64,000 nucleotides of DNA, from assembly GCA_037925075.1 (NCBI GenBank), contig JAXSNR010000001.1, positions 804,330-868,329 on the forward strand. The letters run 5' to 3'. Positions 51,733 to 64,000 of the stretch are shown in pieces (the stretch's first letter is position 1; every line of letters starts with the position of its first letter). This DNA comes from Aquificaceae bacterium. GTDB taxonomy: Bacteria > Aquificota > Aquificia > Aquificales > Aquificaceae. The position numbers and the translations under genes are program-made. The notes under the pieces were generated by a model. It was given only the letters and a program-made list of their open reading frames with translations, was not told where the DNA came from and did no database searches.

Positions 51733-52226
51733 TGAAGTGGCAGATATCAAAAACCTTTAGGTTCGAAGCTGGGCACAGAGTGTGGAAGCAAAACCTTACC
51801 TGTGGAAGGGGTGCTGACTTTACCTTAGGCAAAGAGGTGCCCGTAAACAAGTGCGTAAACCTTCATGGACATGGCTATGTGCTTGAGGTGGTCTTAGGTT
51901 CCAATACTCTCTCGGAACAAGAAATGGTAATGGATTTCTACCATGTGAAGAACGCCCTAAAAGACCTTATAGACACCATAGACCATAGCTTTATCATAGA
52001 CGTAAATGACCCCATGTACGAGGAGCTAAAGGCTGTAGCGGAAAAGTACGGTGCCATGAAGATCTTCCCAGTGGATTTTTGTCCTACCGCGGAAGCCCTT
52101 GCCAAGTTTTTTTATGACTTTCTCGTGCAAAAGCTCTCAGAAGCGGGACTTCTCGGAGATGTGAAGGTGGTAAAGGTGGTCCTGTGGGAAACCGCCACCT
52201 CAAAGGCTGAGTATTACGGTGAATGA
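51732..52226 (+). CDS. queD: 6-carboxy-5,6,7,8-tetrahydropterin synthase
   Basis: FEAGHR, CVNLHGHGY, MDF, DH, PTAE, WET. Confidence 0.9.
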   Translation: MKWQISKTFRFEAGHRVWKQNLTCGRGADFTLGKEVPVNKCVNLHGHGYVLEVVLGSNTLSEQEMVMDFYHVKNALKDLIDTIDHSFIIDVNDPMYEELKAVAEKYGAMKIFPVDFCPTAEALAKFFYDFLVQKLSEAGLLGDVKVVKVVLWETATSKAEYYGE

Positions 52227-54232
52227 ACCTAAAGCTTGCCCTTCCGGGGGGAAGAACTCTAAAGGTAAAGGCTGAGTTTCCATACAAGGGCAGTCCCATA
52301 GGCTACAGGGCCCTTTTGGGTGGAAAGACCGCCATCGTTGTGGGCTTTTCAGAGGATGGTCAAGAAGTATCCCTCGAATTTCCCGACAAAGCTCCTATTA
52401 CTACAGAAAAACACCTAAAGGCGCTATTGGGCACAGCGAGCTTTTATGCCCTCGACCCATGGCTTCTACTTTACAGGCTTTTGCCCTCTGTATTTAACTG
52501 GAGGGAAGAAGAGTACATAGTGCCTTCTGAAAAGCCTCAAGTCTTCTTAGACAAAAAGAGTTTGGAGATTCTCGGTTGGGTAAGACAAAAAAGAAAAGTA
52601 AAGGAGGAAAGCCTAAAAAAACGTTTTGGAGATGGTCCAGTAAAGTATCTTCTGGATCTTGGCTTTCTCCTTAAGAAAAGACAGTGGAAAATTCCAAATA
52701 TTGTGGATAAAGTTTACAGATTGAGCATATCCTTAGAAGAAGCACTGCAAAGGGTCAGCTGGTTGAAAAAAAAGGAAGAAGCCCTTAGGCTAATTGACTT
52801 TTTATTTGAAAGAAGATACGCAACCTTAGAAGAGCTTAAGGAAGTGGGCTTTAAACTTGAGAGTGTAAGGAACCTGATAAAGAGGGGCATAGTTGTAGAA
52901 ACGGAGGAGGTGATCCCGCAGATAAACGCAAAGCCCACCTTGCTTAGGCAAGAAGACAATGCATTCCTTAGACCTCTGGGAGGCAAAAGCCTTCTTATGG
53001 GTAGCTGGCAGGGGGTAAGCACAAGAATTTTTAGGGAGATTCAAGCTCTTGTGGAAAGGGGAGAATCCGCTTTACTTTTTTGCGACAGCAAAGAGCTTTT
53101 GAGGGCCTTCTACCATCAACTTTATCCTTTTCTTAGAGAAAAGCTTGTGCTTTTGAGCTACACCCTAAAGGAAAAGGAATTTTTGAAAAACTGGTTCAGA
53201 TGTGGCGAAGAGGCGGGTCTTGTGGTTCTTGGAAGTAGAATTTCTTTGCTTGCTCCCATTAAAAACCTAAGGCTAATAGTCCTTCTTGGAGATAGTCCTT
53301 CAAAGCTTCCAGATGGCACGGACCTAAGGCACTTTCTCTTTGAGCTTTCCCAATATTACGGTGCGAACTTCTGCGTGGCAAGCCCCCTTCCACCCCTTAA
53401 CCTTTGCCTAAGGGACAGTTGGAGTAAGGAAGTTTTCATTCCCTCTGCGGATGTTATTGTGGTAAGCAGAAAACCAGAAGAGGTGCTTGCTTCTGAGACT
53501 TTAAAGATTTTAAGGGAATGCCTTGACGAGGAAAACCTTATCCTTGTGAATAAGGTGGGCTATGCCTATGCCTACTGTAGAGCTTGCGGTTATTTAGTGG
53601 AATGTCCAAGATGTGCAAGTCTTTTAACCATGGCTAAAGAAAGAAGCACGCTTTTTTGCAACTCTTGCGGGTACAAGACGGTAGCAAAATGTCCAGAGTG
53701 TGGAAGAGAACTTTCTGAACTGGCTTTTGGAATAGAAAAGGCCACGGAAGAGGTGAAAAAGCTACTTGGAAGCTTCTCAAATCTGCACTTTGATACACAG
53801 CCCCAACTTGACAGGACATACGAGAATGTGTTTGTACTCCACGCGGACAACATACTTTCTGTTCCGTGGTATGACTCTACGGAGCGGTACTTTTCTTACA
53901 TGTGGAAGGCACTTAGCATAAGCAGAAAAAGGCTTGTAGTTCAGACGGTTTTAGGGCATAACCCACTTTTGGACCTTTTGAAGGTAAAGGACTGGAAAGG
54001 CTTTTGCAAAGGGGAGCTTGAAAGGAGAAGGGAAGAGAACCTACCCCCCTACAGCAGGCTTATTAGGCTTGAAGTAAAAAAGGAGCCAGACCTTAGCCAT
54101 CTTCCCGTGGAGATAAGCAGGAGAAACCTTGGAAATACAAGGGAACTGCTTCTAAAGGTGAACACCAAAAGCTTTAGCTCAGTTCTGAAGTTCCTCAGAT
54201 CCCTAAGGCCTATTCGCTTGGAAGTGTTATAA
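52223..54232 (+). CDS. priA: Primosomal protein N' (PriA)-like with degenerate helicase motifs
   Basis: 8-Cys region CRAC...CPRC...CNSC...CPEC, VLGSRISLLAP, FGIEK, VQT, ELERRREENLPPY. Confidence 0.75.
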   Translation: MNLKLALPGGRTLKVKAEFPYKGSPIGYRALLGGKTAIVVGFSEDGQEVSLEFPDKAPITTEKHLKALLGTASFYALDPWLLLYRLLPSVFNWREEEYIVPSEKPQVFLDKKSLEILGWVRQKRKVKEESLKKRFGDGPVKYLLDLGFLLKKRQWKIPNIVDKVYRLSISLEEALQRVSWLKKKEEALRLIDFLFERRYATLEELKEVGFKLESVRNLIKRGIVVETEEVIPQINAKPTLLRQEDNAFLRPLGGKSLLMGSWQGVSTRIFREIQALVERGESALLFCDSKELLRAFYHQLYPFLREKLVLLSYTLKEKEFLKNWFRCGEEAGLVVLGSRISLLAPIKNLRLIVLLGDSPSKLPDGTDLRHFLFELSQYYGANFCVASPLPPLNLCLRDSWSKEVFIPSADVIVVSRKPEEVLASETLKILRECLDEENLILVNKVGYAYAYCRACGYLVECPRCASLLTMAKERSTLFCNSCGYKTVAKCPECGRELSELAFGIEKATEEVKKLLGSFSNLHFDTQPQLDRTYENVFVLHADNILSVPWYDSTERYFSYMWKALSISRKRLVVQTVLGHNPLLDLLKVKDWKGFCKGELERRREENLPPYSRLIRLEVKKEPDLSHLPVEISRRNLGNTRELLLKVNTKSFSSVLKFLRSLRPIRLEVL

Positions 54233-54244
54233 TTCTAAATTTGA

Positions 54245-54316
54245 GGGGACGTAGCTCAGTGGGAGAGCGCCTGCATCGCAAGCAGGAGGTCGGGGGTTCA
54301 AATCCCCTCGTCTCCA
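54245..54316 (+). tRNA. tRNA-Ala (anticodon CGC), CCA not encoded
   Basis: Acceptor GGGGACG/CGTCTCC with G3:U70, anticodon arm CCTGC-ATCGCAA-GCAGG, GGTTCAAATCC. Confidence 0.96.
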
Positions 54317-54398
54317 TTTTGATACTCAAAGCAAATCCTTGATAGACCTTTGGTATAAGGAATTGCTTATATTCACTTCTACCTCTTTTCATGGCACT

Positions 54399-54893
54399 TT
54401 ATTGTGGAAAATTCACTTTCATTTTCGGCAATATCTCGGCAATCTCTGAGCCTTGAAAATGTAGCTTTCTAAGACATGCCTGATATTCATCGTTTATGGT
54501 GATATCATCCTTTGACTTAAAGACAAAGTCCTGACACTCTACCTTTTTGAATACAGGATAAACTACATACACATTCTCTCTGTCAACATAGTAGACCCTT
54601 TCCACATTTTCAAAGCTACAGTCCCATTTGCATGTGTTCTCCACAACCTTTAGGTCCTCAGTCAAGCCTCTTATATGAATGCCCGCTTTAGTATCTCCTA
54701 CAAAGATCCAGCCTCTCTCCACAGGTATAGAGTTCTCTATCCTACATCTACCTCTGCCTGTTATGTCAATGTCGCTTGAGTATTCCAGTTTAGCTATGGC
54801 TTTAATAGGTATAGGAAAGTTGTTAATAAGAAAGGCAAAAAGCACAAGTCCTGAGCCTATCTCTAAAAAGTCCCTTTTAGTTAACTTCCTCAT
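54399..54893 (-). CDS. Hypothetical exported protein with Tat-like leader
   Basis: MRKLTKRDFLEIG followed by a hydrophobic stretch; beta-rich, 5 Cys; AAGGAGG RBS. Confidence 0.6.
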   Translation of the reverse strand: MRKLTKRDFLEIGSGLVLFAFLINNFPIPIKAIAKLEYSSDIDITGRGRCRIENSIPVERGWIFVGDTKAGIHIRGLTEDLKVVENTCKWDCSFENVERVYYVDRENVYVVYPVFKKVECQDFVFKSKDDITINDEYQACLRKLHFQGSEIAEILPKMKVNFPQ

Positions 54894-54922
54894 GTTTTGC
54901 ACCTCCTTATCTATAAAACACG

Positions 54923-56725
54923 TTAAAAATCCACTCTTTGGTTAGAGGCTTTTACCTCTTTAGTCTTGCCTCTGACCTCTATCTTCAAAATGCCCTTTGC
55001 ATTCTCCACAAAGACCCTTCCTGTGTCATCGGTTATGTATTCCTCACCATTGATAAGAATTCTCTCAAGACTTACAGGCTTGCCATCCATGTAAATCTCT
55101 AATAGCACATCCTTACCAGTCCTTATTCTTCTACCTTGCCCTGAGTAGAGTGAAAGCTTCTCTGAATGGGTATCTGAGATAACTAAGTGATTGTAGTAGG
55201 AGCTAAGAGGAATTAGGCTAAAGGCTTTTACACCACCGCTTTGTAAACCTTTACCTACCACAAAGCTATCCCAAACAGGCAAGCCAAGACCACACTCAAG
55301 ACCATCTTCATAGACACATCCTATGCTACCTGAAAGGCTATAGCTTGTTCTGTCTTTGTTTAGACTTAGCCTTATGAGGTTTATGCTTTTTAACTCAAGC
55401 TCTGCAGAGGTATACTCTGTGTGGTTCTTTTGATAGTTCACTCTAAAGCCATAGTCTATCTCTTTGCTACTAAGCAGGCTTTTATAGAGGCTTACTCCGT
55501 AGCCATCCTTTTGCTTAGATATGCCCGCACCAAAGCCACCACCAAAATACATAGTCCAGCCCACAAAGAAGTTGTCCTTTGATACACTTACACTAAGAGT
55601 TCCTTTGAGTAAGCTTCCTGAAAGGGTTAGCCCTACAAAAGACCTCTGGTTCTTGTATCCATAAAGCCCCACTGTGAAATTGCCTATAGGAAAGCTTAGG
55701 TTATATCTCAAATCTCTTTCTCTATAGCCTACAGTAAGCCCAGCTTTAGCTATCTCTGTATAGTAGCTAAGGTCATAGTCCTTTTTGCTATCCACAAAAA
55801 CAGAAAACACTCCCAGCTTAGTCAAAGTGGTAAAGCCCAATCCTTGCTTGTTATTACTCCCAGCAACCTCTAAGGTAAGATGCTTGTTTAGACCATACCT
55901 GTAGTAGCCTCTAAATTGTCCCCTCTCAAAAAAGCCTAAAGAGAAATCCGAATAGCCCTCAGGCAAAACCTGAGGAGAATACAGAAAGAATAGCTTTTCC
56001 TCTCTAACTCCTTTGCTATCTGTTATCCTCAAAGTAAGCTCATTAGATAGTCCACTAAGAGGTAAGTTCCTAAGGTCATATATGCCCGCAGGCAATTCAA
56101 TCTTTTGCAGAAGCTTACCATCTCTGTAAACCTCTATCACAGACCTATCTGTAAGGATAAGCTGTGTGCTTGCATAAACAGGGCTTTGGTTTATCCAATG
56201 TCTTTGAAGGACAAAGCCTCTTGAGTATAAGCCTTGCAGAGTTTTCCATCCGCCAGACCATCCATAACCTAAAGTAAACCTCAAATCCCTCTCAGGGTTA
56301 TCAAAAACAAGCCTGTAATCTCGCCATTGCCCTTGCTTCTTGTCATAAAAACCGCTCAGAGAAAACCGCTTTAAGAAAAGGATAGGCTGTAAGACCACAT
56401 TGTCCTTTGTAAGGTAGTAGTTCAAAGCAAGGCTATAACTTTCCTCAAGGATAGGCTTTTCTTTGCTTTCTATAGCCTTACTTTCTAAGCAAGACTTGTG
56501 AGGATAGACCTTTATAAAGCCCTTTTCCTCATCAACCTCCACCTTTCCAAAATCCTTTAGGTTATCACTCTTGCATTTCCCAAAAGTTATCTGTTTTTCA
56601 AGCCTGTAAGCTTCCACAAGAACCACATCTCCATAATCCACTCCACCAATATCCAGTGTGAATATCATCAAAAGGTCAATTACGTTAAAAGGGCTTTGCA
56701 AAAGGTAACGTAATTTAGTAGGCAT
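54923..56725 (-). CDS. Fimbrial outer-membrane usher-like protein (compact, about 600 aa; start uncertain)
   Basis: Plug-domain motif SVIEVYRDGKLLQKIELPAGIYDLRNLPLSGLSNELTLRITDSKG...LPEGYSDFSLG, YRYGLNKHLTL, beta-barrel strands, C-terminal DGKPV...TDDTGRVFV. Confidence 0.75.
   Translation of the reverse strand: MPTKLRYLLQSPFNVIDLLMIFTLDIGGVDYGDVVLVEAYRLEKQITFGKCKSDNLKDFGKVEVDEEKGFIKVYPHKSCLESKAIESKEKPILEESYSLALNYYLTKDNVVLQPILFLKRFSLSGFYDKKQGQWRDYRLVFDNPERDLRFTLGYGWSGGWKTLQGLYSRGFVLQRHWINQSPVYASTQLILTDRSVIEVYRDGKLLQKIELPAGIYDLRNLPLSGLSNELTLRITDSKGVREEKLFFLYSPQVLPEGYSDFSLGFFERGQFRGYYRYGLNKHLTLEVAGSNNKQGLGFTTLTKLGVFSVFVDSKKDYDLSYYTEIAKAGLTVGYRERDLRYNLSFPIGNFTVGLYGYKNQRSFVGLTLSGSLLKGTLSVSVSKDNFFVGWTMYFGGGFGAGISKQKDGYGVSLYKSLLSSKEIDYGFRVNYQKNHTEYTSAELELKSINLIRLSLNKDRTSYSLSGSIGCVYEDGLECGLGLPVWDSFVVGKGLQSGGVKAFSLIPLSSYYNHLVISDTHSEKLSLYSGQGRRIRTGKDVLLEIYMDGKPVSLERILINGEEYITDDTGRVFVENAKGILKIEVRGKTKEVKASNQRVDF
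56678..56715. repeat. Perfect 10-bp inverted repeat between the divergent usher and chaperone genes
   Basis: AATTACGTTA (56678-56687), 18-nt spacer, TAACGTAATT (56706-56715). Confidence 0.8.
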
Positions 56726-57269
56726 GAGGCTAATAGGATTGCTCGGGCTGGTAGGACTTAGCTTTGGCTTGACTATCTATCCAATACCTGTAGAAGTTAA
56801 AGGTAGAGTAGGCTATCTGTATATAGAAGGTCAAGAAGGGCAAACCTTCAAAATAACCTCTGAGCCTTTTGAAGAAGGGGAGCAAGACAATCTGATAGTC
56901 TATCCTCCACAGGTTAGGATAAGAAATGGCAAAGCTGTTATCAAGGTAGCCTTTAAAAACACAGACACCTCAAAAGAGCAAGCTGGTAGAGTAGTCATTA
57001 CAGAGTTAAAACCCCAATCAGAAGGCTTAAGTATAGCCTATAGCTTTTCAGTGCCTGTTTTTCAACCACCTCGCAAGGAAGTTTTTGAAGTGGAAGTAGA
57101 ATGCATGAAAGACCGCATGATAGTTAAAAACAAAGGCAATATCCATATAAAGATAACAAGCCTTGATGACAAGCCTGTTCTACACTATGTGCTACCTAAT
57201 AAGCAGATAGAGGTTCAGAGGGCTAAGGTTATAGAAACTCAGAGAGGGAAAGTAAATGCATGCTTTTAG
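56724..57269 (+). CDS. PapD-like fimbrial chaperone
   Basis: Signal peptide, LTIYP, LIVYPPQVRI, EQAGRVVITEL, FSVPVFQPP, VKNKGNIH. Confidence 0.78.
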   Translation: MRLIGLLGLVGLSFGLTIYPIPVEVKGRVGYLYIEGQEGQTFKITSEPFEEGEQDNLIVYPPQVRIRNGKAVIKVAFKNTDTSKEQAGRVVITELKPQSEGLSIAYSFSVPVFQPPRKEVFEVEVECMKDRMIVKNKGNIHIKITSLDDKPVLHYVLPNKQIEVQRAKVIETQRGKVNACF

Positions 57270-57272
57270 GGC

Positions 57273-58754
57273 TCACTTGCTGAATAAACTTTCCTCTACC
57301 TCTCTTGCTCTTTGCCTTGCCCTCAGCCATCTTTCTTCTACTCTCTTTTGTATCTCCTCTTTATCCGCTGTGTTAACTCTTTGTTTTTCCCACTTCTCTT
57401 GAAGTTCAAGTAATACTCTTGCAAAGTCCTTTAACCACAAGGACATCTCCCTTTCCCTTTTTTCATCCCACCATTTGAAATCACTATCTGACACCATAGA
57501 AAAGAGAAAGTCTGTAAATACTGTATCCGTTAAAGTATTGTGGTTTTGCATCATATAGACGAATACCATTGTATCTAAGACATTTACAGGCGGATGATAT
57601 GTTGTTAACCTCGCATTTAGCCATTGAGTTAACACAGGGTTTGGTTCTGGTAGTAGTCTTGCGGATAATGGGTTTGAATGCCAGAAGAAGATTTCAGGTT
57701 CGTAGTCTCCATGAATATAAAATGTAGAGCCATACAAGAGGGAAAGCCCCGAGAGCAACTCCAAGTTTATAAGGGAGTTAAGCAAAGGGTCGTCAGTATA
57801 TTTTATGGATTTATCCCTGTATCCTGTCAGGAAAATATACAAAAGCCTCTGAAGATTAGAGGTTTCATGATTTTTTCTAAATTGGTATATCATGCCCGAG
57901 TATTTGTTTAGGGTCAACTCTAAGTTTATGGAAACCTTTGCTATTTTCCCCCCTTTTTCAAAAGTCAGCTGAGGTGTGTAAGAGGAAATACTACCAAAAA
58001 GACTTTCATAAGTAGCGACAAGTCTTTGGGAAATGGCTTTGTAGAAATCTAACTCTGTCTTAAAAGCCTGCTGTGTATACTTATTCAGGATATTGTTGAG
58101 ATATTCGTAGATGCTTATCGGAATTTTAGTAGGGTCTATTCTCAGAGGGGGAGCGGGTTGCCAAAACAAAGATGTTGGGGGGACTGCGGGTTTTCTTGGA
58201 TATAGATACTTAACAAATGGGTCGCATAAACCAGGGGCAATCTCTGAAAGAATAAGAGAAGGAGGATGCGGATACTCTGTTATAGCCCTATGCCATAAAT
58301 GTAATGCTACAGGGTCTCGGGCAATAACTGACAATAAGACCGTTTCTACTGCCTCAGGACCCGCTTGTGGCGGTGCAAGAGAAAAAGCGGTGAGAATATG
58401 AGGGCTTTCTTCTATATAACTTACCAAGTCATAAGCCTTTGTTTTCCCTAAAGCATTTCTATTTAAAGGAACAGGAGAGAACACTATCTTAGGACAAACA
58501 AGAGGGTCTACTTTCCCTTGTGCTAAGCGTAGTGTGGTAAGAAATGCGGGTCTACTTGCTAAGTCTAATTTTATAGGTTTTTCTGTGTTTTTTAGTGTAG
58601 TAATCGCTTTCTCTGGCGGTGAGCTTGTGTATGTTTGTGGTGTTGATGTATTCGCCGGAACATCCATGACTGTAGGAGGTATAAATGAAGTATCAGCTAA
58701 TACCGTTGAAGCCCATATAAGTAGAGGTATGGAAAAGAGAATTTCTCTTTTCAT
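57273..58754 (-). CDS. Hypothetical secreted protein (Pro-rich N-terminus, C-terminal coiled coil)
   Basis: Signal peptide ending VLA-D; 493 aa; ATGA coupling with the upstream gene. Confidence 0.7.
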   Translation of the reverse strand: MKREILFSIPLLIWASTVLADTSFIPPTVMDVPANTSTPQTYTSSPPEKAITTLKNTEKPIKLDLASRPAFLTTLRLAQGKVDPLVCPKIVFSPVPLNRNALGKTKAYDLVSYIEESPHILTAFSLAPPQAGPEAVETVLLSVIARDPVALHLWHRAITEYPHPPSLILSEIAPGLCDPFVKYLYPRKPAVPPTSLFWQPAPPLRIDPTKIPISIYEYLNNILNKYTQQAFKTELDFYKAISQRLVATYESLFGSISSYTPQLTFEKGGKIAKVSINLELTLNKYSGMIYQFRKNHETSNLQRLLYIFLTGYRDKSIKYTDDPLLNSLINLELLSGLSLLYGSTFYIHGDYEPEIFFWHSNPLSARLLPEPNPVLTQWLNARLTTYHPPVNVLDTMVFVYMMQNHNTLTDTVFTDFLFSMVSDSDFKWWDEKREREMSLWLKDFARVLLELQEKWEKQRVNTADKEEIQKRVEERWLRARQRAREVEESLFSK

Positions 58755-60208
58755 TTCTTTTCCTCCGCAAGGCTGTCAAGTTTTCCGGCAAGCACCTCTA
58801 AGTTCTTGTCCGCACTCTCTTCAACTGTATGCGAATACAGACCACCAGTTTCTTGTCCTAAAGGAGCCTTTCTTCTTGGGGACACTCCTTCTACATAAAC
58901 CTCTAATGGAGAACCACCCCAAAGAGTGCATACATGCTCGTTAAACTCTATACATACAGGATTGGGATACCAATAAGTTTTAGCCATCTGAAGTCCTTGA
59001 TAAGCAAATGTTTTCTGCAATTCATTTAGTCCAGATATTGTTGAACCTATAGACTGAGACCTTACCGCATTAGCATGTGCGAAGGGAAGATAAGGGACTG
59101 CACCACAAATGGAAGCAAATTGAGGATTTATACCTATAGCTTCCATTGTAGCCAATATTCCCTTTTTATACCTTTGGTAAAACTTCTCTATGTGCTCCTT
59201 GCTATAACAAGCTACCACATATCTGTCATCAATCCTTGCAATTAAACCCATATCCTCTCCAGTTCCCATTTCCTTAGTAGCATCCATGCTTGCTACCCAA
59301 AGAGTCATTTCTTTTGATAGAGGTGTATCTACCTTTAAAGTAGTCATCTTCCAGCCTTTCCAATCCATAAGGCACTCTATAAAACCTGTTTGGATGGGAG
59401 ACATAAGCCTTGTGAAGAACTTTTTAATCATACTTTCTGTATCATCCCCAACCTTTGAGTCAACTTTCTTGAAGTAATAGCAAAAGTTCCTTTCTGGCTT
59501 AAAAGAGATTAGTATAGTAGGCACTCTACCTAAAAAAAGACCCGCTCCAAATTCATCCCACAGATACCATCCATCTCCTTTGGCTATTGTCATTTGCGTT
59601 CTGGCATTTCCTATAAATTCAAGTCGGTCAATAGATCTTACAGCATTAGCACTATACTGATTGGTTAAGCAACCATTAAACTTTTCATATTCACGCCTCT
59701 GTGTTTGTGTGTTCCTTCTATACTCAACTTCCTTCCAGAATAACCTTTCTGCCAAAGATAGCTTCTCATCGCCTGTGAACTCTCTTGCAGATTTTACTAC
59801 CTTCTCTCTCACAAAGTCAGAATTAGCAAAGTCCCTTAAGCTACTGTTAACTTTGACAATAAATGTGGCATAGGTTATTTCATTGTAATTACCTGAAGCA
59901 TCACCTTTTGCTGTCAATAGCCTTTTTGATACATTAGCTTGGCTTTTCTCTAAAGCTGTGCCAAGAAAAACAGGGTGAAAAACAATGTAATTCTCAGGCT
60001 TGCCCCATTTATCTACAGGAAAGTCCTTGCATCCTGATAAGGCTTTTGCCTTTTCTTTTTCCTCTTTTTCCTTATCTTGTTTCTTCTCTTGTTCACTCTT
60101 TTCCTTTGCCTTATCTAACCACTCTTTGCTAAGCCAATTAGTGTTGTCCTGAGAAAAACCTATCTGAGTTAAACAAAGACCTATTGCTATAAGCTTCCAT
60201 CTTTTCAT
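58751..60208 (-). CDS. Hypothetical secreted protein
   Basis: Signal peptide ending GFS-Q, K/E-rich linker, several Cys; 485 aa. Confidence 0.7.
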   Translation of the reverse strand: MKRWKLIAIGLCLTQIGFSQDNTNWLSKEWLDKAKEKSEQEKKQDKEKEEKEKAKALSGCKDFPVDKWGKPENYIVFHPVFLGTALEKSQANVSKRLLTAKGDASGNYNEITYATFIVKVNSSLRDFANSDFVREKVVKSAREFTGDEKLSLAERLFWKEVEYRRNTQTQRREYEKFNGCLTNQYSANAVRSIDRLEFIGNARTQMTIAKGDGWYLWDEFGAGLFLGRVPTILISFKPERNFCYYFKKVDSKVGDDTESMIKKFFTRLMSPIQTGFIECLMDWKGWKMTTLKVDTPLSKEMTLWVASMDATKEMGTGEDMGLIARIDDRYVVACYSKEHIEKFYQRYKKGILATMEAIGINPQFASICGAVPYLPFAHANAVRSQSIGSTISGLNELQKTFAYQGLQMAKTYWYPNPVCIEFNEHVCTLWGGSPLEVYVEGVSPRRKAPLGQETGGLYSHTVEESADKNLEVLAGKLDSLAEEKK

Positions 60209-61332
60209 AGGCTAAACCTCCTTTGTATGCTAAGTTTCTTTTCAAGCTCCTCAACATCTCTGTATAGTTTGTTTCTTACATTAGAGTCTGCAAAGTCAAG
60301 TAAATATAAATTTCCTAAAACCGCTAAGTATGGTAGACCTTTTATTCTTTCTATTTGCAACCTACCTTTGACTTTGTAGTATCTACCCTCTAAAGAAACT
60401 TCAGATGTGGGCTTCCACAGTTCAGTGTAATACTTGACATAATCCCTCAAGGTTCTGAGATACACATAGTAGTAATCCCAACCAAGAGCGTTAAGTTTTT
60501 CTCTTACAACATTTTCTAAGGAAGCAAAAGTGGGAACTCCCGCAAGTGGGTAGTCTATCCTGCTTATAAACAGGGCATACTCTCTGTAGTAGTTCATTAA
60601 CAGGTAAGCCCTACTGTAGAGTATTTTTGCCTCCTCTTTCATACCTAAATTCTCAAAAACTACCGCACTCATAAGCATGGCATAGTGTGTGGGTCCGACA
60701 GAACCTCCGAGAACCTGACCCACAAAAGCACCTGTAGGGTCATTAGAATTGAGGATATTTCCATAAAAAAGGAAAACATCTACATAGCGATTTAGGAGAA
60801 AACCATATCTTTTAGTATCTAAACCAAGCTCCTGTGCTATGGTAGTAAAGACAAATTTTCTTACTTGTTCCTTGTCCGTGAAGCGTTTCACAGTATCAAA
60901 GTCTCCATTGTCCAGAGGGTCGTATATCCACTTTTTCAAAACTCTGGGATTAAGAGAAGCAAGTCCATAGTAAGAGTCATCCTCTAAAAATTTCTTAGCA
61001 AAAGGAAGAGCTCCTTCCCAGTCCTTCATCTTGTATCTAAGATTAAATTCGCAAAAGTAGGAATGTTTAAAACCTTTCAGAAGTCTATCCTTTTTCTCCT
61101 CTTCTGGTAGTTTATCCACAAACAAAGGCTCAAGACACAGTTGTCGGTATTTCCTCCACCAACCTTCATCAAGTCTACCATAAGCGAGAGGCACTACTAA
61201 TGCCTCTAAAGGATTTCCTGCTTTTAATTCCTGTGTTCCTATAATCTTATCAAGAAAGTCTTGAGCAGAAACAGTGGAGATAAACAAAGTATTGGATAGC
61301 AAAGCAATTGCCATAAGTTTTTTAAGCTTCAT
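60205..61332 (-). CDS. Hypothetical secreted helical (possibly TPR-like) protein
   Basis: MKLKKLMAIALL...VSA-Q signal; AVVFENLGMKEEAKILYSRA resembles a TPR; GGAGG RBS before 61332. Confidence 0.65.
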   Translation of the reverse strand: MKLKKLMAIALLSNTLFISTVSAQDFLDKIIGTQELKAGNPLEALVVPLAYGRLDEGWWRKYRQLCLEPLFVDKLPEEEKKDRLLKGFKHSYFCEFNLRYKMKDWEGALPFAKKFLEDDSYYGLASLNPRVLKKWIYDPLDNGDFDTVKRFTDKEQVRKFVFTTIAQELGLDTKRYGFLLNRYVDVFLFYGNILNSNDPTGAFVGQVLGGSVGPTHYAMLMSAVVFENLGMKEEAKILYSRAYLLMNYYREYALFISRIDYPLAGVPTFASLENVVREKLNALGWDYYYVYLRTLRDYVKYYTELWKPTSEVSLEGRYYKVKGRLQIERIKGLPYLAVLGNLYLLDFADSNVRNKLYRDVEELEKKLSIQRRFSL

Positions 61333-61522
61333 CTTTTCCACCTCCAAAGAGTTCCTTTTCCAAAATACTATAGCTTTCCTTAAACTCTTGCAGAGCGGTA
61401 TTGACTGCATCTGAAAAGGCTAAGACAAGTTCAAAGTAGCCCTGTGCTAAAAATTCAACAAGTTCTCTAAGGGCTTCTACCTTTTCTTCAAGGTTCATTT
61501 CTTGCCATCGCTCTTTATTCAT
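61322..61522 (-). CDS. Small hypothetical protein
   Basis: 66 aa with AGGAGG RBS; overlaps both neighbours. Confidence 0.6.
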   Translation of the reverse strand: MNKERWQEMNLEEKVEALRELVEFLAQGYFELVLAFSDAVNTALQEFKESYSILEKELFGGGKDEA

Positions 61523-61742
61523 GTTTTCCTCCTTTTTGAAGAGTAGAATACGTTAACTGTTTGTAGTCCAAGTCTGTGTTTTCTTTACTTGGTTCTTCAG
61601 AAAGCTTCAGGAAAAGCCAATAAAGGGCAAGTGTAAAGCCACCACTTAAGAGGGAATAGAACAGGCTTGCGGTAAAATAGTAAGCAGGCAAAACAGAGAT
61701 TAAAAGAAGGCTAAAGGCTTTTAAGATGGTAGCTATTCTCAT
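61515..61742 (-). CDS. Small two-TM membrane protein
   Basis: Two hydrophobic helices and a charged tail; overlaps the 3' end of the coupling-protein gene. Confidence 0.6.
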   Translation of the reverse strand: MRIATILKAFSLLLISVLPAYYFTASLFYSLLSGGFTLALYWLFLKLSEEPSKENTDLDYKQLTYSTLQKGGKHE

Positions 61743-63033
61743 CTCTTTCAAAACCTCCTGTTATTTCTGGTAAGTCATACCATACAGGTTTTATAAAGGT
61801 CTTTAGCTTGCCCGAAGATGTGGTTATCTCCGCATAGGCTATGTAGTCTCTTAGGTCTAAGAAAACTTCTGGGGGGACTGTATAGGTTTGCACTCTTGTG
61901 TGTTGAACTTGCCCGCTAAGCCCTCCCATTATGTTGGTAAGGCTAAAATCACTTTCTTGCATGCTTATATCTTCCACTCCATACTCTAAACTTCCTGAGC
62001 TTTCCGCAAGCACCTTTGCTGTCTCTACCGCATCCACTCTAAAGGCAAAAAGAAAATGCCTTGAGTTCATCAAAAGAGAAAGCCTATCTTTGCTATCTAC
62101 GGGTAGAAACTGCATTCCTAAGAATAAACACATGCCTTTACTTCTTGCTAAGGTAAGAACCTGTTTTTCAAGGTCAGGGTCTATGTTGAAGTTAAGGTAT
62201 TCATCAAGGATGAAAAAAACAAAGTCCTTAAAGTCCTTTGTATCTGGTCTTGAAAGATATCTTAGAAAACATGCACTCAAAAAGCCTTGATTTACTATCT
62301 GAAGTGGCTTGGAAAACTCAGGCAAGAAAACAAGGAATATCCTCTTGGCTTGAAGTATCTTATCTAAAGGCATAGGTTCTTTATTTGACATATAGGCAAG
62401 AGAATAAAGGTCTAAAAGTGTTTGGATTACAGGTTGAGCGGTGGCAAAGGCGGATGCAGAAGTGGTAGGTAGTGAGCTTTCTTTCTGTTTTTTATACCAC
62501 TCATAAATGGCAAGAGCGGTTTCTTTTGCGGGTAATTGTGGAACATACTCTAAGAGTTTCATTAGCCATTCTACGGCTTTCACAGTCCAAAACTCCGCAT
62601 CTTTGCCCTTGTTGTAGCTTGATACCATGTTGTAAAACACACTCCTTGCAAACATCTTATCCTTTCTACAATCTCCTAAAACATCCCATATAACACCCCT
62701 GCGGTCAAGATGGTTAAGTATCACATCTCCCTCTTGGTAAAAGTGGGCGGTATATTCACCTTTTACATCGTGTATCACATACCTGTTATCAAAGCTGGCG
62801 GTAATATATTTCAAAAGGTTAGATTTACCACTTCCCATCTTTCCTATAACCAGCGAGGTTTTGTTGAAGTCCCTTGAGTTTATGTAGATATCTTCAACCC
62901 ACCACTCCTTGTATAGGTCTTTTAGATAAAACCGCCTCATCTCCACATTACCACCAGAGCCTATGAGAAAGTCTCCCTTTGCTTTCATAAAGTCTTCCTT
63001 ATCGGATAAAAGGCTTCCTTTATAGACTTTCAT
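61711..63033 (-). CDS. Type IV secretion coupling protein-like ATPase (TraD/TrwB/VirD4 family)
   Basis: VIGKMGSGKS Walker A, VIHDVKGEY...GDVILNHLDRRG..WD, EFW, FFILDEY Walker B, ARSKG..LFLGMQ, ETAKVLAE. Confidence 0.85.
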   Translation of the reverse strand: MKVYKGSLLSDKEDFMKAKGDFLIGSGGNVEMRRFYLKDLYKEWWVEDIYINSRDFNKTSLVIGKMGSGKSNLLKYITASFDNRYVIHDVKGEYTAHFYQEGDVILNHLDRRGVIWDVLGDCRKDKMFARSVFYNMVSSYNKGKDAEFWTVKAVEWLMKLLEYVPQLPAKETALAIYEWYKKQKESSLPTTSASAFATAQPVIQTLLDLYSLAYMSNKEPMPLDKILQAKRIFLVFLPEFSKPLQIVNQGFLSACFLRYLSRPDTKDFKDFVFFILDEYLNFNIDPDLEKQVLTLARSKGMCLFLGMQFLPVDSKDRLSLLMNSRHFLFAFRVDAVETAKVLAESSGSLEYGVEDISMQESDFSLTNIMGGLSGQVQHTRVQTYTVPPEVFLDLRDYIAYAEITTSSGKLKTFIKPVWYDLPEITGGFERDENSYHLKSL

Positions 63034-63683
63034 CTCTCAAGTTCCTCCGAAGCTTCCAAGTCTTTTTGTGCATCCTTTCCCATGTTGTTTATTGCATTCC
63101 TTTCCTCGTTGAGCCCCTGTGTATTGTTTTTGTCCGATTCTTGAGTTTTCTGTTCATCAGATTTCTCTAAGTCCTGCATATACCGCTCCTTAAACTTCTC
63201 AAAACCCTCATCTCTTCCAAACCTTCCTTTATCTAAGTTTTCCTTATCTAAGCCTTTGCCTAATTCCTCTCTTAGGTTCTTAACTTCCTGTGTAGTAGAC
63301 CTTATCTTGTCCGCTATGTTAACAATGCTGTTGTTGAAGTTTAGATTGTAATTAACCTGAGGTGCGTGCAAGGGTCTGAAGTTTTCTTTAGGAATATTAC
63401 CATTCCTTATTTCCTTGGCAAGGTTCTTGTAGGCTTCCCTTAACTCCTTTGAGTTAGCTAAAAGAAGATGGGTCTGTTTCTCGGCAAGCTGGGCTACCTT
63501 GTCCCAATATTCCTGCTTTCCTGTAAGTCTGGCAAGTTTTTCATTTATCTGGATAGCCCTATCTAATTGTGATGCTTCCCGCATCTCCAAATTTTTCATG
63601 TGTTCCCAAGCACTTTTCCCATCTTTGGCATTAGCTATGGATGCCAATATAAAATTGCTGAGTTGTTTAGTAAACGCACCCAT
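63030..63683 (-). CDS. Hypothetical charged/coiled-coil protein
   Basis: 217 aa, highly charged; ATGA overlap with the coupling-protein gene. Confidence 0.65.
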   Translation of the reverse strand: MGAFTKQLSNFILASIANAKDGKSAWEHMKNLEMREASQLDRAIQINEKLARLTGKQEYWDKVAQLAEKQTHLLLANSKELREAYKNLAKEIRNGNIPKENFRPLHAPQVNYNLNFNNSIVNIADKIRSTTQEVKNLREELGKGLDKENLDKGRFGRDEGFEKFKERYMQDLEKSDEQKTQESDKNNTQGLNEERNAINNMGKDAQKDLEASEELER

Positions 63684-63685
63684 GA

Positions 63686-64000
63686 CTATTTACCTCTCTT
63701 TGGTAATAGTTCTTTAGCTAAAAACAATGCTATAACTACCAAAGCACTGAAGCTTAGCACCAAAAGTAAGAAAGGAAGTGGAGTTTGTCTGGCACTAAGT
63801 AAGATGGCATCGTAGTAAGACTTGACTTGCTTTTCTGTTCTAAAAAGCTCATCCTTGCTTGCGGAGACTTTCCTGTAGTTTTCTAAAGCTTCCTTGTAGT
63901 TTGCTTTTGCTTGCTCACATTCTTGAGGGTCTACATTAAAACCACTACATGCAAAATCCATGTCAAATTTAGCCTTGTCTAAATCCTGTTTAGCTAAGGT
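63686..64000 (-). CDS. Partial hypothetical protein with C-terminal TM helix (5' end off window)
   Basis: The frame stays open from 63961 to the window edge (TLAKQDLDKAKFD-MDFAC...), so the listed Met is probably internal. Confidence 0.6.
   Translation of the reverse strand, partial: TLAKQDLDKAKFDMDFACSGFNVDPQECEQAKANYKEALENYRKVSASKDELFRTEKQVKSYYDAILLSARQTPLPFLLLVLSFSALVVIALFLAKELLPKRGK

Follow-up and report, generated by a model that had tools for sequence, protein, structure and literature searches.

The minus-strand gene block that follows tRNA-Ala(CGC) in the window (the whole 64-kb stretch of DNA analysed, from genome G000, a hot-spring bacterium) is probably the left arm of an integrative mobilisable element inserted at this tRNA gene, which would borrow the F-type mating channel of another element. 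In this scenario, a tyrosine integrase would excise the element as a circle, and a MOBH relaxase would nick that circle. Coupling ATPases without transmembrane (TM) segments, each probably tethered to the inner membrane by the small product of a neighbouring gene, would pass the substrate to the helper channel. The chaperone-usher genes probably encode adhesive fimbriae of the Csu type, which would favour biofilm contact, and three secreted proteins would form an exchangeable envelope cassette rather than part of the channel. Excision and mobilisation are inferred, as are the identity of the helper and the function of the pilus. We suggest that the island likely spreads on another element's conjugation machine because its best-assembled relative has no recognisable mating-channel motor.

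Integration at tRNA-Ala

The integration target is tRNA-Ala(CGC) (54245..54316, plus strand, found with ARAGORN). The 46-bp attL core (54272..54317, plus strand) corresponds to the 3' half of the tRNA gene and has a direct repeat, attR, identical at 45 of 46 positions, at the start of the next contig (G000:C2:82-127). This attR lies 23 bp past the stop codon of an integrase, whose tail on C2 (the last 18 codons) matches a tyrosine integrase that is complete in the congener G009 (PF00589, E 4e-35); contig G009:C71 has an att arrangement like that of G000. The empty site, priA-tRNA-dprA, is present in the complete congener G015. A site-specific recombinase adjoining att, and direct att repeats with an empty site in a relative, both mark an integrative element (ICE or IME). 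The sequence-only reading had taken the block for one end of a mobile element that targets a tRNA gene, and the att repeat, integrase tail and empty site bear this out. It had proposed looking for a repeat of the tRNA-Ala 3' end and an integrase past 64 kb, both of which are represented on C2 (the integrase by its tail), and for an empty tRNA-Ala site in a related genome, which is the one in G015.

The GC content of the element arm is 0.396, versus 0.456 in the remaining window and 0.446 +/- 0.022 across 162 genome bins. A core-genome reading was rejected, since the ATPase arm has a DNA-level match in G009 alone among 60 relatives. The window stops where contig C1 stops, and the C1-C2 gap, of unassembled length, holds the middle of the G000 copy. 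Contigs C3 and C4 were considered as the missing middle and rejected, being ~80% copies of C1 housekeeping regions. Because this middle is unassembled, the relaxase, second ATPase and pilins are known from relatives rather than from G000; no relaxase was found in the assembled G000 sequence, and the MOBH relaxase of this copy presumably lies in the gap. No excision joint was present among the joints listed for four runs, in which the reference was without C2.

Gene order and selection

Minus-strand ORFs run from tRNA-Ala(CGC) onward, with ATGA stop/start overlaps at 63030, 60205 and 58751, as expected for the tightly coupled operon proposed earlier. Promoter and terminator scans gave matches at chance level only. 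The contig end cuts a two-TM protein of ~160 aa, of which the 3' part is present (63686..64000, minus strand; 91% to G009). This protein is a core marker of the element family and was found in nine of 178 genomes. Directly upstream of the coupling ATPase gene is that of a 217-aa helical protein (63030..63683, minus strand), the N-terminal half of which is conserved across the window, L031, G009 and G178. Its low-complexity charged tail has Arg at the end. Charged tails closing with Arg are typical of T4SS substrates, and the protein is possibly a substrate or an adaptor.

Such tails, found in the 217-aa family, could point to a protein-delivery and immunity module, in which the coupling ATPase would load the 217-aa protein (or others) as an effector onto a borrowed channel and the signal-peptide proteins would provide periplasmic immunity or exclusion. 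The exchangeability of the cassette fits this view, as do the small look-alike signal-peptide proteins that, by eye, stand in tandem beside the coupling gene in relatives. We nevertheless find it very unlikely, given that no toxin domain was found among the proteins scanned and that the order of the secreted-protein trio is maintained at 25-28% identity, as would not be expected of a loose immunity array.

The window ORFs are intact, and dN/dS values of 0.07-0.14 for the ATPase gene, 0.28 for the 217-aa gene and 0.41 for the 375-aa gene (versus L034) indicate purifying selection. Together with the near-perfect att repeat and the finding of relatives behind different target sites and recombinases, this makes it highly improbable that the block is a decaying, immobile remnant of a larger conjugative element, even though the chaperone gene is inverted, the usher lacks an evident signal peptide and several family-f3 copies are frameshifted.

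The coupling ATPase and its predicted anchor

The ATPase, here termed T4CP-B (61711..63033, minus strand), matches PF10412 (TrwB_AAD_bind) above the cut-off (E 2.5e-23), which upholds the earlier call of a coupling-protein-like ATPase in the operon. In its family (430-453 aa), Walker A and B are invariant in six of six sequences and an N-terminal TM is absent from all six. Judged by these sequences, T4CP-B fits the TMD-less subfamily rather than the VirD4 type with N-terminal TM helices.

The 75-aa membrane protein encoded downstream (61515..61742, minus strand; D59, Y65 and S66 conserved) is predicted to be a separate membrane anchor of T4CP-B. The predicted complex scores 0.73, versus 0.00 for the best control, by a measure whose mark is passed by 116 of 157 solved pairs and 2 of 215 mismatched pairs; this pass may stem from likeness to solved coupling proteins. 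Contacts agree between runs to at least 87%, with a partner pLDDT of at least 67, and the modelled interface coincides with residues invariant in both families. No sequence homology was detected between the anchor and the N-terminal TM regions of 19 full-length coupling-protein relatives. With 10 changes, the dN/dS of the anchor gene is uninformative. Conserved behind the anchor gene is a 66-aa helical protein (61322..61522, minus strand; 48% in G009), and a 59-aa protein that looks alike by eye takes the same position in G178.

The pairing of TM-less coupling proteins with small membrane proteins is known, as excerpts of one article describe (PMC7434980). The pIP501 TraJ/TraI and R27 TraG-TraJ pairs resemble the present one in joining a soluble ATPase to a small membrane protein, the docking being predicted here, but in the element family the anchor gene is downstream of the ATPase gene and the partner is just 75-90 aa.

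An exchangeable cassette of secreted-type proteins

Three secreted-looking ORFans follow, of 375 aa (60205..61332, minus strand, ATG at 61332; a TPR-like helix pair, with homologues in L034, G178, L029 and L030), 485 aa (58751..60208, minus strand; a same-position homologue in G178) and 493 aa (57273..58754, minus strand; 28% to the same-position G178 gene, E 5e-23). Signal peptides had been assigned to all three, which holds by eye and by hydropathy, except that the 493-aa protein falls below the hydropathy threshold. Their homologues on G178:C10 keep the gene order at 25-28% identity, and an interim reading of the trio as random cargo was dropped because G178 carries all three in order. We regard the trio as accessory because in the near-identical sibling L033 (~95% DNA identity) it is swapped for one other secreted gene. 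The cassette junctions lie near 57271 and 61309, and the cassette is skipped in two of four runs.

The 485-aa protein belongs to a small new family with conserved cysteines (six representatives including itself at E<=1e-10, 1.84 billion searched), and profiles of the 485-aa and 375-aa families matched G000 alone among 178 genomes. For the model of the 485-aa protein (pLDDT 62.5, pTM 0.65), Foldseek gave no match at E<=0.001 (best Z 3.5), which proves neither a new fold nor an absence of relatives. The ORFans gave unnamed clusters only at 0.90, or nothing, in the ESM Atlas, and profile searches against the PDB were empty or insignificant. The envelope proteins had been said not to resemble VirB/Tra proteins by eye, in agreement with the finding that they have no match among Pfam, NCBIfam and PHROG families or among local F-type Tra proteins.

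Chaperone-usher and pilin genes

Between the cassette and the tRNA are genes for a PapD-like chaperone (56724..57269, plus strand) and a short fimbrial usher homologue of 581 aa (54923..56668, minus strand; the ORF extends to 56725). Singly, both proteins fall below the Pfam cut-off. A five-sequence usher profile matches FimD at E 4e-9 and also the Caf1A plug, and the window usher is 40% identical to that of the G178 element. PapD_N is matched by the window chaperone at E 0.021 and by the G178 chaperone at E 7e-4, and the two chaperones are 41% identical. An usher and a chaperone had been described as following the operon; both homologues are indeed present, but the chaperone gene lies outside the minus-strand operon because it is on the plus strand, head-to-head with the usher gene. 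It is inverted relative to the gene order in G178 and G124. For an invertible chaperone gene, no convincing flanking inverted repeat was found, and no strand-switch joint among the joints listed.

The conserved start of the usher is Met20 (56668), with no evident signal peptide, and the G178 usher gene has an in-frame stop just upstream of its start. The lack of an evident signal peptide puts pilus assembly in question. The single-sequence model of the usher was unusable (pLDDT 34.5). Nearest the tRNA is an unassigned terminal ORF of 167 aa with a hydrophobic N-terminus (54399..54902, minus strand), which in its C-terminal part shares 40% identity with an ORF of 69 aa in the G178 element; remnants of it stand beside tRNA-Pro(CGG) in G031 and G012.

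Chaperone-usher genes recur across the element family. No SCPU pilin was found in the assembled part of G000, while one lies beside the integrase in G009 and a pair of Csu-type pilins in G178. The likeness to Csu/SCPU-type fimbriae extends to the collinear SCPU pilin, usher and chaperone genes of G178 and G124. Unlike those of the Csu/SCPU and mrk systems, the element ushers are ~580-630 aa (FimD, 830-880 aa) with no evident signal peptide. Plasmid-borne fimbriae can increase conjugal transfer, according to part of one report (PMC5023117). In family-f3 relatives, the stretches examined contain no usher, chaperone or pilin. Given this and the replacement of the trio in the sibling, neither pilus nor trio finds support as an obligatory part of a transfer machine.

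Relaxases and VirB4 in related elements

Among the 178 genomes of the phylum, 11 have markers of the element family. Contig G178:C10 (24.8 kb) combines a MOBH relaxase and an integrase with the three ORFans, usher and chaperone, two Csu-type pilins and two TM-less coupling ATPases. Between the relaxase (TraI_2, E 4.6e-12) and the integrase the genes run without interruption over 20.4 kb and include homologues of window genes. The whole contig, which is open at both ends, has just two Walker-A ORFs, both coupling-type, and no VirB4 was found on it. The near-complete G054 (2 contigs) has a related chromosomal element with relaxase and coupling protein, and a VirB4 on its second contig only. Overall, a VirB4 profile was above the cut-off in two of the 11 marker-carrying genomes, in both on contigs other than that of the element, and had no match in nine. 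No match was found in G048, G117 and G055 (99% complete), all with family markers, nor in the assembled sequence of G000 (C1-C2 gap excluded). The self-transmissible ICE proposed from the sequence is not supported, as VirB4 was not found in the best-assembled relatives.

In the MOBH relaxase of G009, G178 and f3 elements, the HHH, H and HD motifs are conserved; no oriT was located. The closest match of the relaxase is MobH (NF041494, E 7e-11 and 3.5e-19) and that of the second ATPase is SXT TraD (E 7e-20), with all SXT_TraD and MobH matches far below the curated cut-offs. No mating-pair-formation gene of type F, T, I or G had a convincing Pfam or NCBIfam match among the window, G009 and G178 proteins. 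The sole hit of this kind was a below-cut-off TraK_N match on a pilin. Profiles found no match among 113 ORFs around local F-type systems, a comparison that remote homology may escape. A prophage or phage satellite was rejected: there were no structural PHROG matches in 15 proteins, no virion or packaging genes among 25 G178 proteins (Pfam), and no hits in four scans of viral contigs. Plasmids, too, contained no close relative.

A secreted protein of ~335 aa, a two-TM protein and a TM protein of ~130 aa are conserved across two families. They count against a mobilisable element, since a simple hitchhiker has no obvious need for them. Alternatively, the element could be self-transmissible by an undescribed VirB4-independent channel, in which a coupling-type ATPase replaces VirB4 and the secreted and membrane proteins form the conduit. 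Two tethered coupling-type ATPases would then drive the MOBH relaxase-DNA complex, and the signal-less minimal usher would build a contact pilus. Two intact ATPases, the nine marker-carrying genomes with no VirB4 match, and envelope proteins conserved at 25-50% across families with no known-family match are consistent with such a machine, as is the gene order in G178, where the pilus genes are flanked by those for relaxase and coupling protein, all on a single strand and mostly with short gaps or overlaps. However, the trio is replaced in the L033 sibling, f3 elements show a single ATPase and, over the stretches examined, no pilus genes, the only outer-membrane channel candidates identified are the usher and one unassigned 190-aa ORF, and F-type systems exist in the clade. 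We therefore consider this unlikely.

Candidate F-type helpers

The congener G016 has an F-type system with TraC, TraG, TraH and TraU, and G178 carries a TraC 97% identical to that of G016. The F-type tra genes of G178 are on contig C27. G178 has one close integrase only, which shares 76% identity with the integrase of the F-type ICE in G016. Since C10 is open at both ends, the tra genes are on C27 and there is one close integrase, a composite ICE in G178 is possible. More generally, the window could be the coupling and cargo arm of an ordinary F-type ICE, with VirB4 and the tra operon in the assembly gap (on separate contigs in relatives). The undefined length of the C1-C2 gap and the tra genes on C27 together with the single close integrase of G178 would allow this, but we think it quite unlikely, because the G054 element is whole in an assembled chromosome without VirB4, G048, G117 and G055 (99% complete) have markers and no VirB4 match, and G178:C10 shares backbone genes with the G016 ICE at no more than 44-76% identity, versus 88-99% for the C27 genes.

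For a mobilisable element that borrows an F-type channel, there is precedent in that the MobH relaxases of SXT and IncA/C use F-type channels, as stated in a portion of a 2017 review (PMC5704250), and excerpts of an earlier survey list one Aquificae with an F-type T4SS and no relaxase (PMC3548315). Helper co-occurrence with family markers is not enriched (2/11 versus 23/178 overall).

Comparison with known mobile elements

The element family resembles IMEs with their own coupling protein (streptococcal MobC+VirD4 elements, CloDF13-type plasmids) in its own relaxase and VirD4-type protein, its integrase, att at a tRNA 3' end and no VirB4 found. It differs in the MOBH-type relaxase, two coupling proteins, conserved envelope proteins and fimbrial genes. 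In the excerpted text of the 2017 review, neither MobF nor MobH is known from a canonical IME, and IMEs that have a VirD4 of their own have MobC (PMC5704250). A MobH-like relaxase and an SXT_TraD-like ATPase recall the MOB module of SXT/R391 and IncA/C (MOBH TraI with TraD), but the family is without F-type mating-pair genes and its envelope proteins have no homology to local F-type Tra proteins. Among SGI1-like islands, SGI1, in the same excerpt, carries envelope subunits while using a helper, as the present family would, and unlike this family it is listed without a canonical relaxase (PMC5704250).

Implications

No description of an integrative mobilisable element from this phylum was found in the literature. 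The family combines a MOBH relaxase, twin split coupling proteins, at least five envelope protein families without assignment, and fimbriae. If transfer were in fact independent of a helper, the working rule by which all single-strand conjugation systems are marked by VirB4 would be overturned, and the VirB4-independent machine would represent a new class among those that transfer single-strand DNA, from a thermophile lineage that branches deeply. The site-specific thermophilic integrase and its att pair are offered to a lineage with few genetic tools. The elements are candidate users of the F-type channels of Aquificae, and the helper-hitchhiker pair is therefore directly testable.

Integration site and boundaries

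The island forms the left arm of a mobile element at tRNA-Ala(CGC) (54245-54316, plus strand). This tRNA, the island genes and their overlaps lie at the positions given by the sequence-only reading, and the block is GC-poor (0.396 versus 0.456). Contig C1 of the genome (G000) ends where the window ends, and the next contig, C2, opens with the 3' end of an integrase gene (18 codons), followed by a 45/46 direct repeat of the 3' half of the tRNA and then by the 3' part of dprA. Of the features that the earlier reading had proposed to look for past 64 kb, the repeat and the tail of an integrase are thus present, and the element therefore bridges an assembly gap. The unoccupied tRNA-Ala site that it had also proposed to seek is found in the complete congener G015, where priA, tRNA-Ala and dprA are adjacent. 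In another congener, G009, the same att adjoins a tyrosine integrase gene that is complete and preceded by an SCPU pilin gene. Contigs C3 and C4, both small, were ruled out as the middle of the element: they duplicate housekeeping regions of C1 at ~80% identity and likely derive from a different strain or species present in the assembly.

What lies at the tRNA-Ala(CGC) site varies: in four congeners (L020, L021, L023, L017), the tRNA or its att repeat is followed by a molybdopterin oxidoreductase block. Just past attR (C2:131-13405, L022), a ~12 kb insertion with TnsA-, transposase-, TniB- and TniQ-like genes and methyltransferase-like cargo splits dprA; it is a Tn7/Tn5053-like element and a neighbour of the island. 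Remnants of the terminal 167-aa ORF (54399..54902, minus strand) adjoin tRNA-Pro(CGG) in two other genomes (L018:12473-12865, L019:4724-5131), which suggests that related elements sit at another tRNA. The PriA-like gene at 52223-54232 has a zinc ribbon and no helicase match in Pfam at E<=0.1.

Gene content and relatives

The coupling-protein-like ATPase (ATPase B; 61711..63033, minus strand) is a clear coupling-protein homologue, and in 6/6 close family members the Walker motifs are invariant and a transmembrane segment is absent. An usher and a chaperone had been described as following the minus-strand operon. Profile search upheld the usher (54923..56668, minus strand, in an ORF extending to 56725), but the chaperone (56724..57269) is on the opposite, plus strand. 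Members of the usher family (window 54923-56725; L107:3337-5175; P0071) are short and apparently start at a conserved motif, without a signal peptide; the untranslated bases upstream of the start look alike in the window and in the Aquificales bin G178.

This bin holds the best relative, contig C10 (24,805 bp), where relaxase through integrase form a single co-directional run of 20.4 kb. The run begins with the relaxase, a phosphoesterase, homologues of the 375-, 485- and 493-aa proteins (ordered as in the window), a 190-aa ORF and two pilins, and continues with the usher, chaperone, ATPase A, membrane proteins, a homologue of the 217-aa protein (63030..63683, minus strand), ATPase B (63%), the anchor, a secreted ~310-aa protein and the integrase. 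Only two ORFs of C10 have a Walker A motif, both coupling-type. The 217-aa family ends in charged tails, a trait typical of T4SS substrates. On G009:C58 the upstream continuation of the operon encodes a two-TM protein, a secreted and a membrane protein of 331 and 128 aa, a second coupling ATPase, an excisionase-like HTH protein and a metallophosphoesterase; a MOBH relaxase is at the end of a different G009 contig. A second family of this bacterial order, f3, has related elements that encode a relaxase, the secreted protein (~340 aa), membrane proteins and ATPase A. Three of them lie downstream of a serine recombinase at tRNA-Met, and the f3 stretches examined showed neither usher nor chaperone nor pilin. 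Next to the f3 coupling gene lie small signal-peptide proteins that resemble one another and stand in tandem, together with helical proteins rich in cysteine (L125:4651-6655, L126:6724-9769).

Among 178 genomes, the secreted protein occurs in 8, the relaxase in 7, the two-TM protein in 9 and a close ATPase A (E<1e-70) in 9, with any ATPase A match in 21; the union of these four markers, counting close ATPase A, is 11 genomes, G178 being outside that set. ATPase B occurs in 4 genomes and the usher in 2. The island stretch is also present in hot-spring metagenome runs from six studies. NCBI labels assign some proteins of the element family (P0003, P0027, P0033, P0048, P0062, P0063) to archaeal bins of three kinds; they are probably from misbinned element contigs.

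Exchangeable secreted proteins

The three secreted-type ORFans (375, 485 and 493 aa) are real genes. Purifying selection acts on the 375-aa gene, and a set of 1.84 billion representatives yielded five relatives for the 485-aa protein, one of them the G178 protein. No match to the trio was found among protein families, structures or local Tra proteins. The trio is exchangeable: in metagenome contig L033, both flanks agree with the window at 94-96%, with junctions at 61309 and 57271, and one different secreted gene stands between them. A joint skipping these 4,040 bases was found in 2/4 runs. In G009-type copies the slot is occupied by still other secreted genes, one belonging to the 375-aa family.

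A possible split coupling protein

In the predicted complex, the conserved tail (residues 58-66) of the 75-aa membrane protein (61515..61742, minus strand) lies against invariant residues 413-421 of ATPase B. The model scored 0.73, the best of three controls 0.00, with contact agreement of at least 87% and partner pLDDT of at least 67. This mark was reached by 116/157 solved pairs and 2/215 mismatched pairs, counts that hold only roughly because alignments made here were used. The modelling supports binding of the 75-aa protein to ATPase B, and the pass may stem from likeness to solved coupling proteins.

Transfer and candidate helpers

VirB4 exceeded the profile cut-off in 23/178 genomes and in only 2/11 marker-carrying genomes, on other contigs both times. 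The G054 genome (2 contigs, 100% complete) has the element in its chromosome, and VirB4 is surrounded by F-type genes on the second contig. Such F-type systems are candidate helpers; that their co-occurrence with the element is not enriched counts against a helper-dependent reading. G016 has an F-type system with TraC, TraG, TraH and TraU at a tRNA-Ala(GGC)-like repeat, and G178 encodes a TraC 97% identical to that of G016, on a contig separate from C10. A further point against a helper-dependent reading is that only one close integrase is found in G178, so that a composite element is possible there. The coupling protein of the chromosomal F-type system in G016 (G016:C1 about 782900-785200; L114:12936-15206) has a C-terminal HD domain (E 6e-9), and no TraI_2 relaxase was found in that genome. 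It is possibly a coupling protein-relaxase fusion, matching the MOBH profile built here at only E 0.14.

Helper-free transfer through a novel channel is improbable in our judgement, and we retain it because the conserved envelope proteins lack an explanation. PMC3158045 counts a relaxase cluster that lacks VirB4 as mobilisable; PMC5704250, PMC7434980, PMC3548315 and PMC5023117 were also drawn on. No published description of the element family was found in literature listings, whose coverage leaves out most subscription journals; such loci may already figure as mobilisable clusters in the supplementary tables of conjugation surveys across genomes. The island is a real, apparently undescribed variant of integrative mobilisable element.

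What is shown directly is limited to the anatomy of integration, the genes present and the exchange of the cassette. Most likely, the element would be excised through its own integrase, its MOBH relaxase would then nick the DNA, and its own anchored coupling proteins would give entry to the F-type channel of a helper. The fimbriae would likely keep host cells in contact within hot-spring biofilms.
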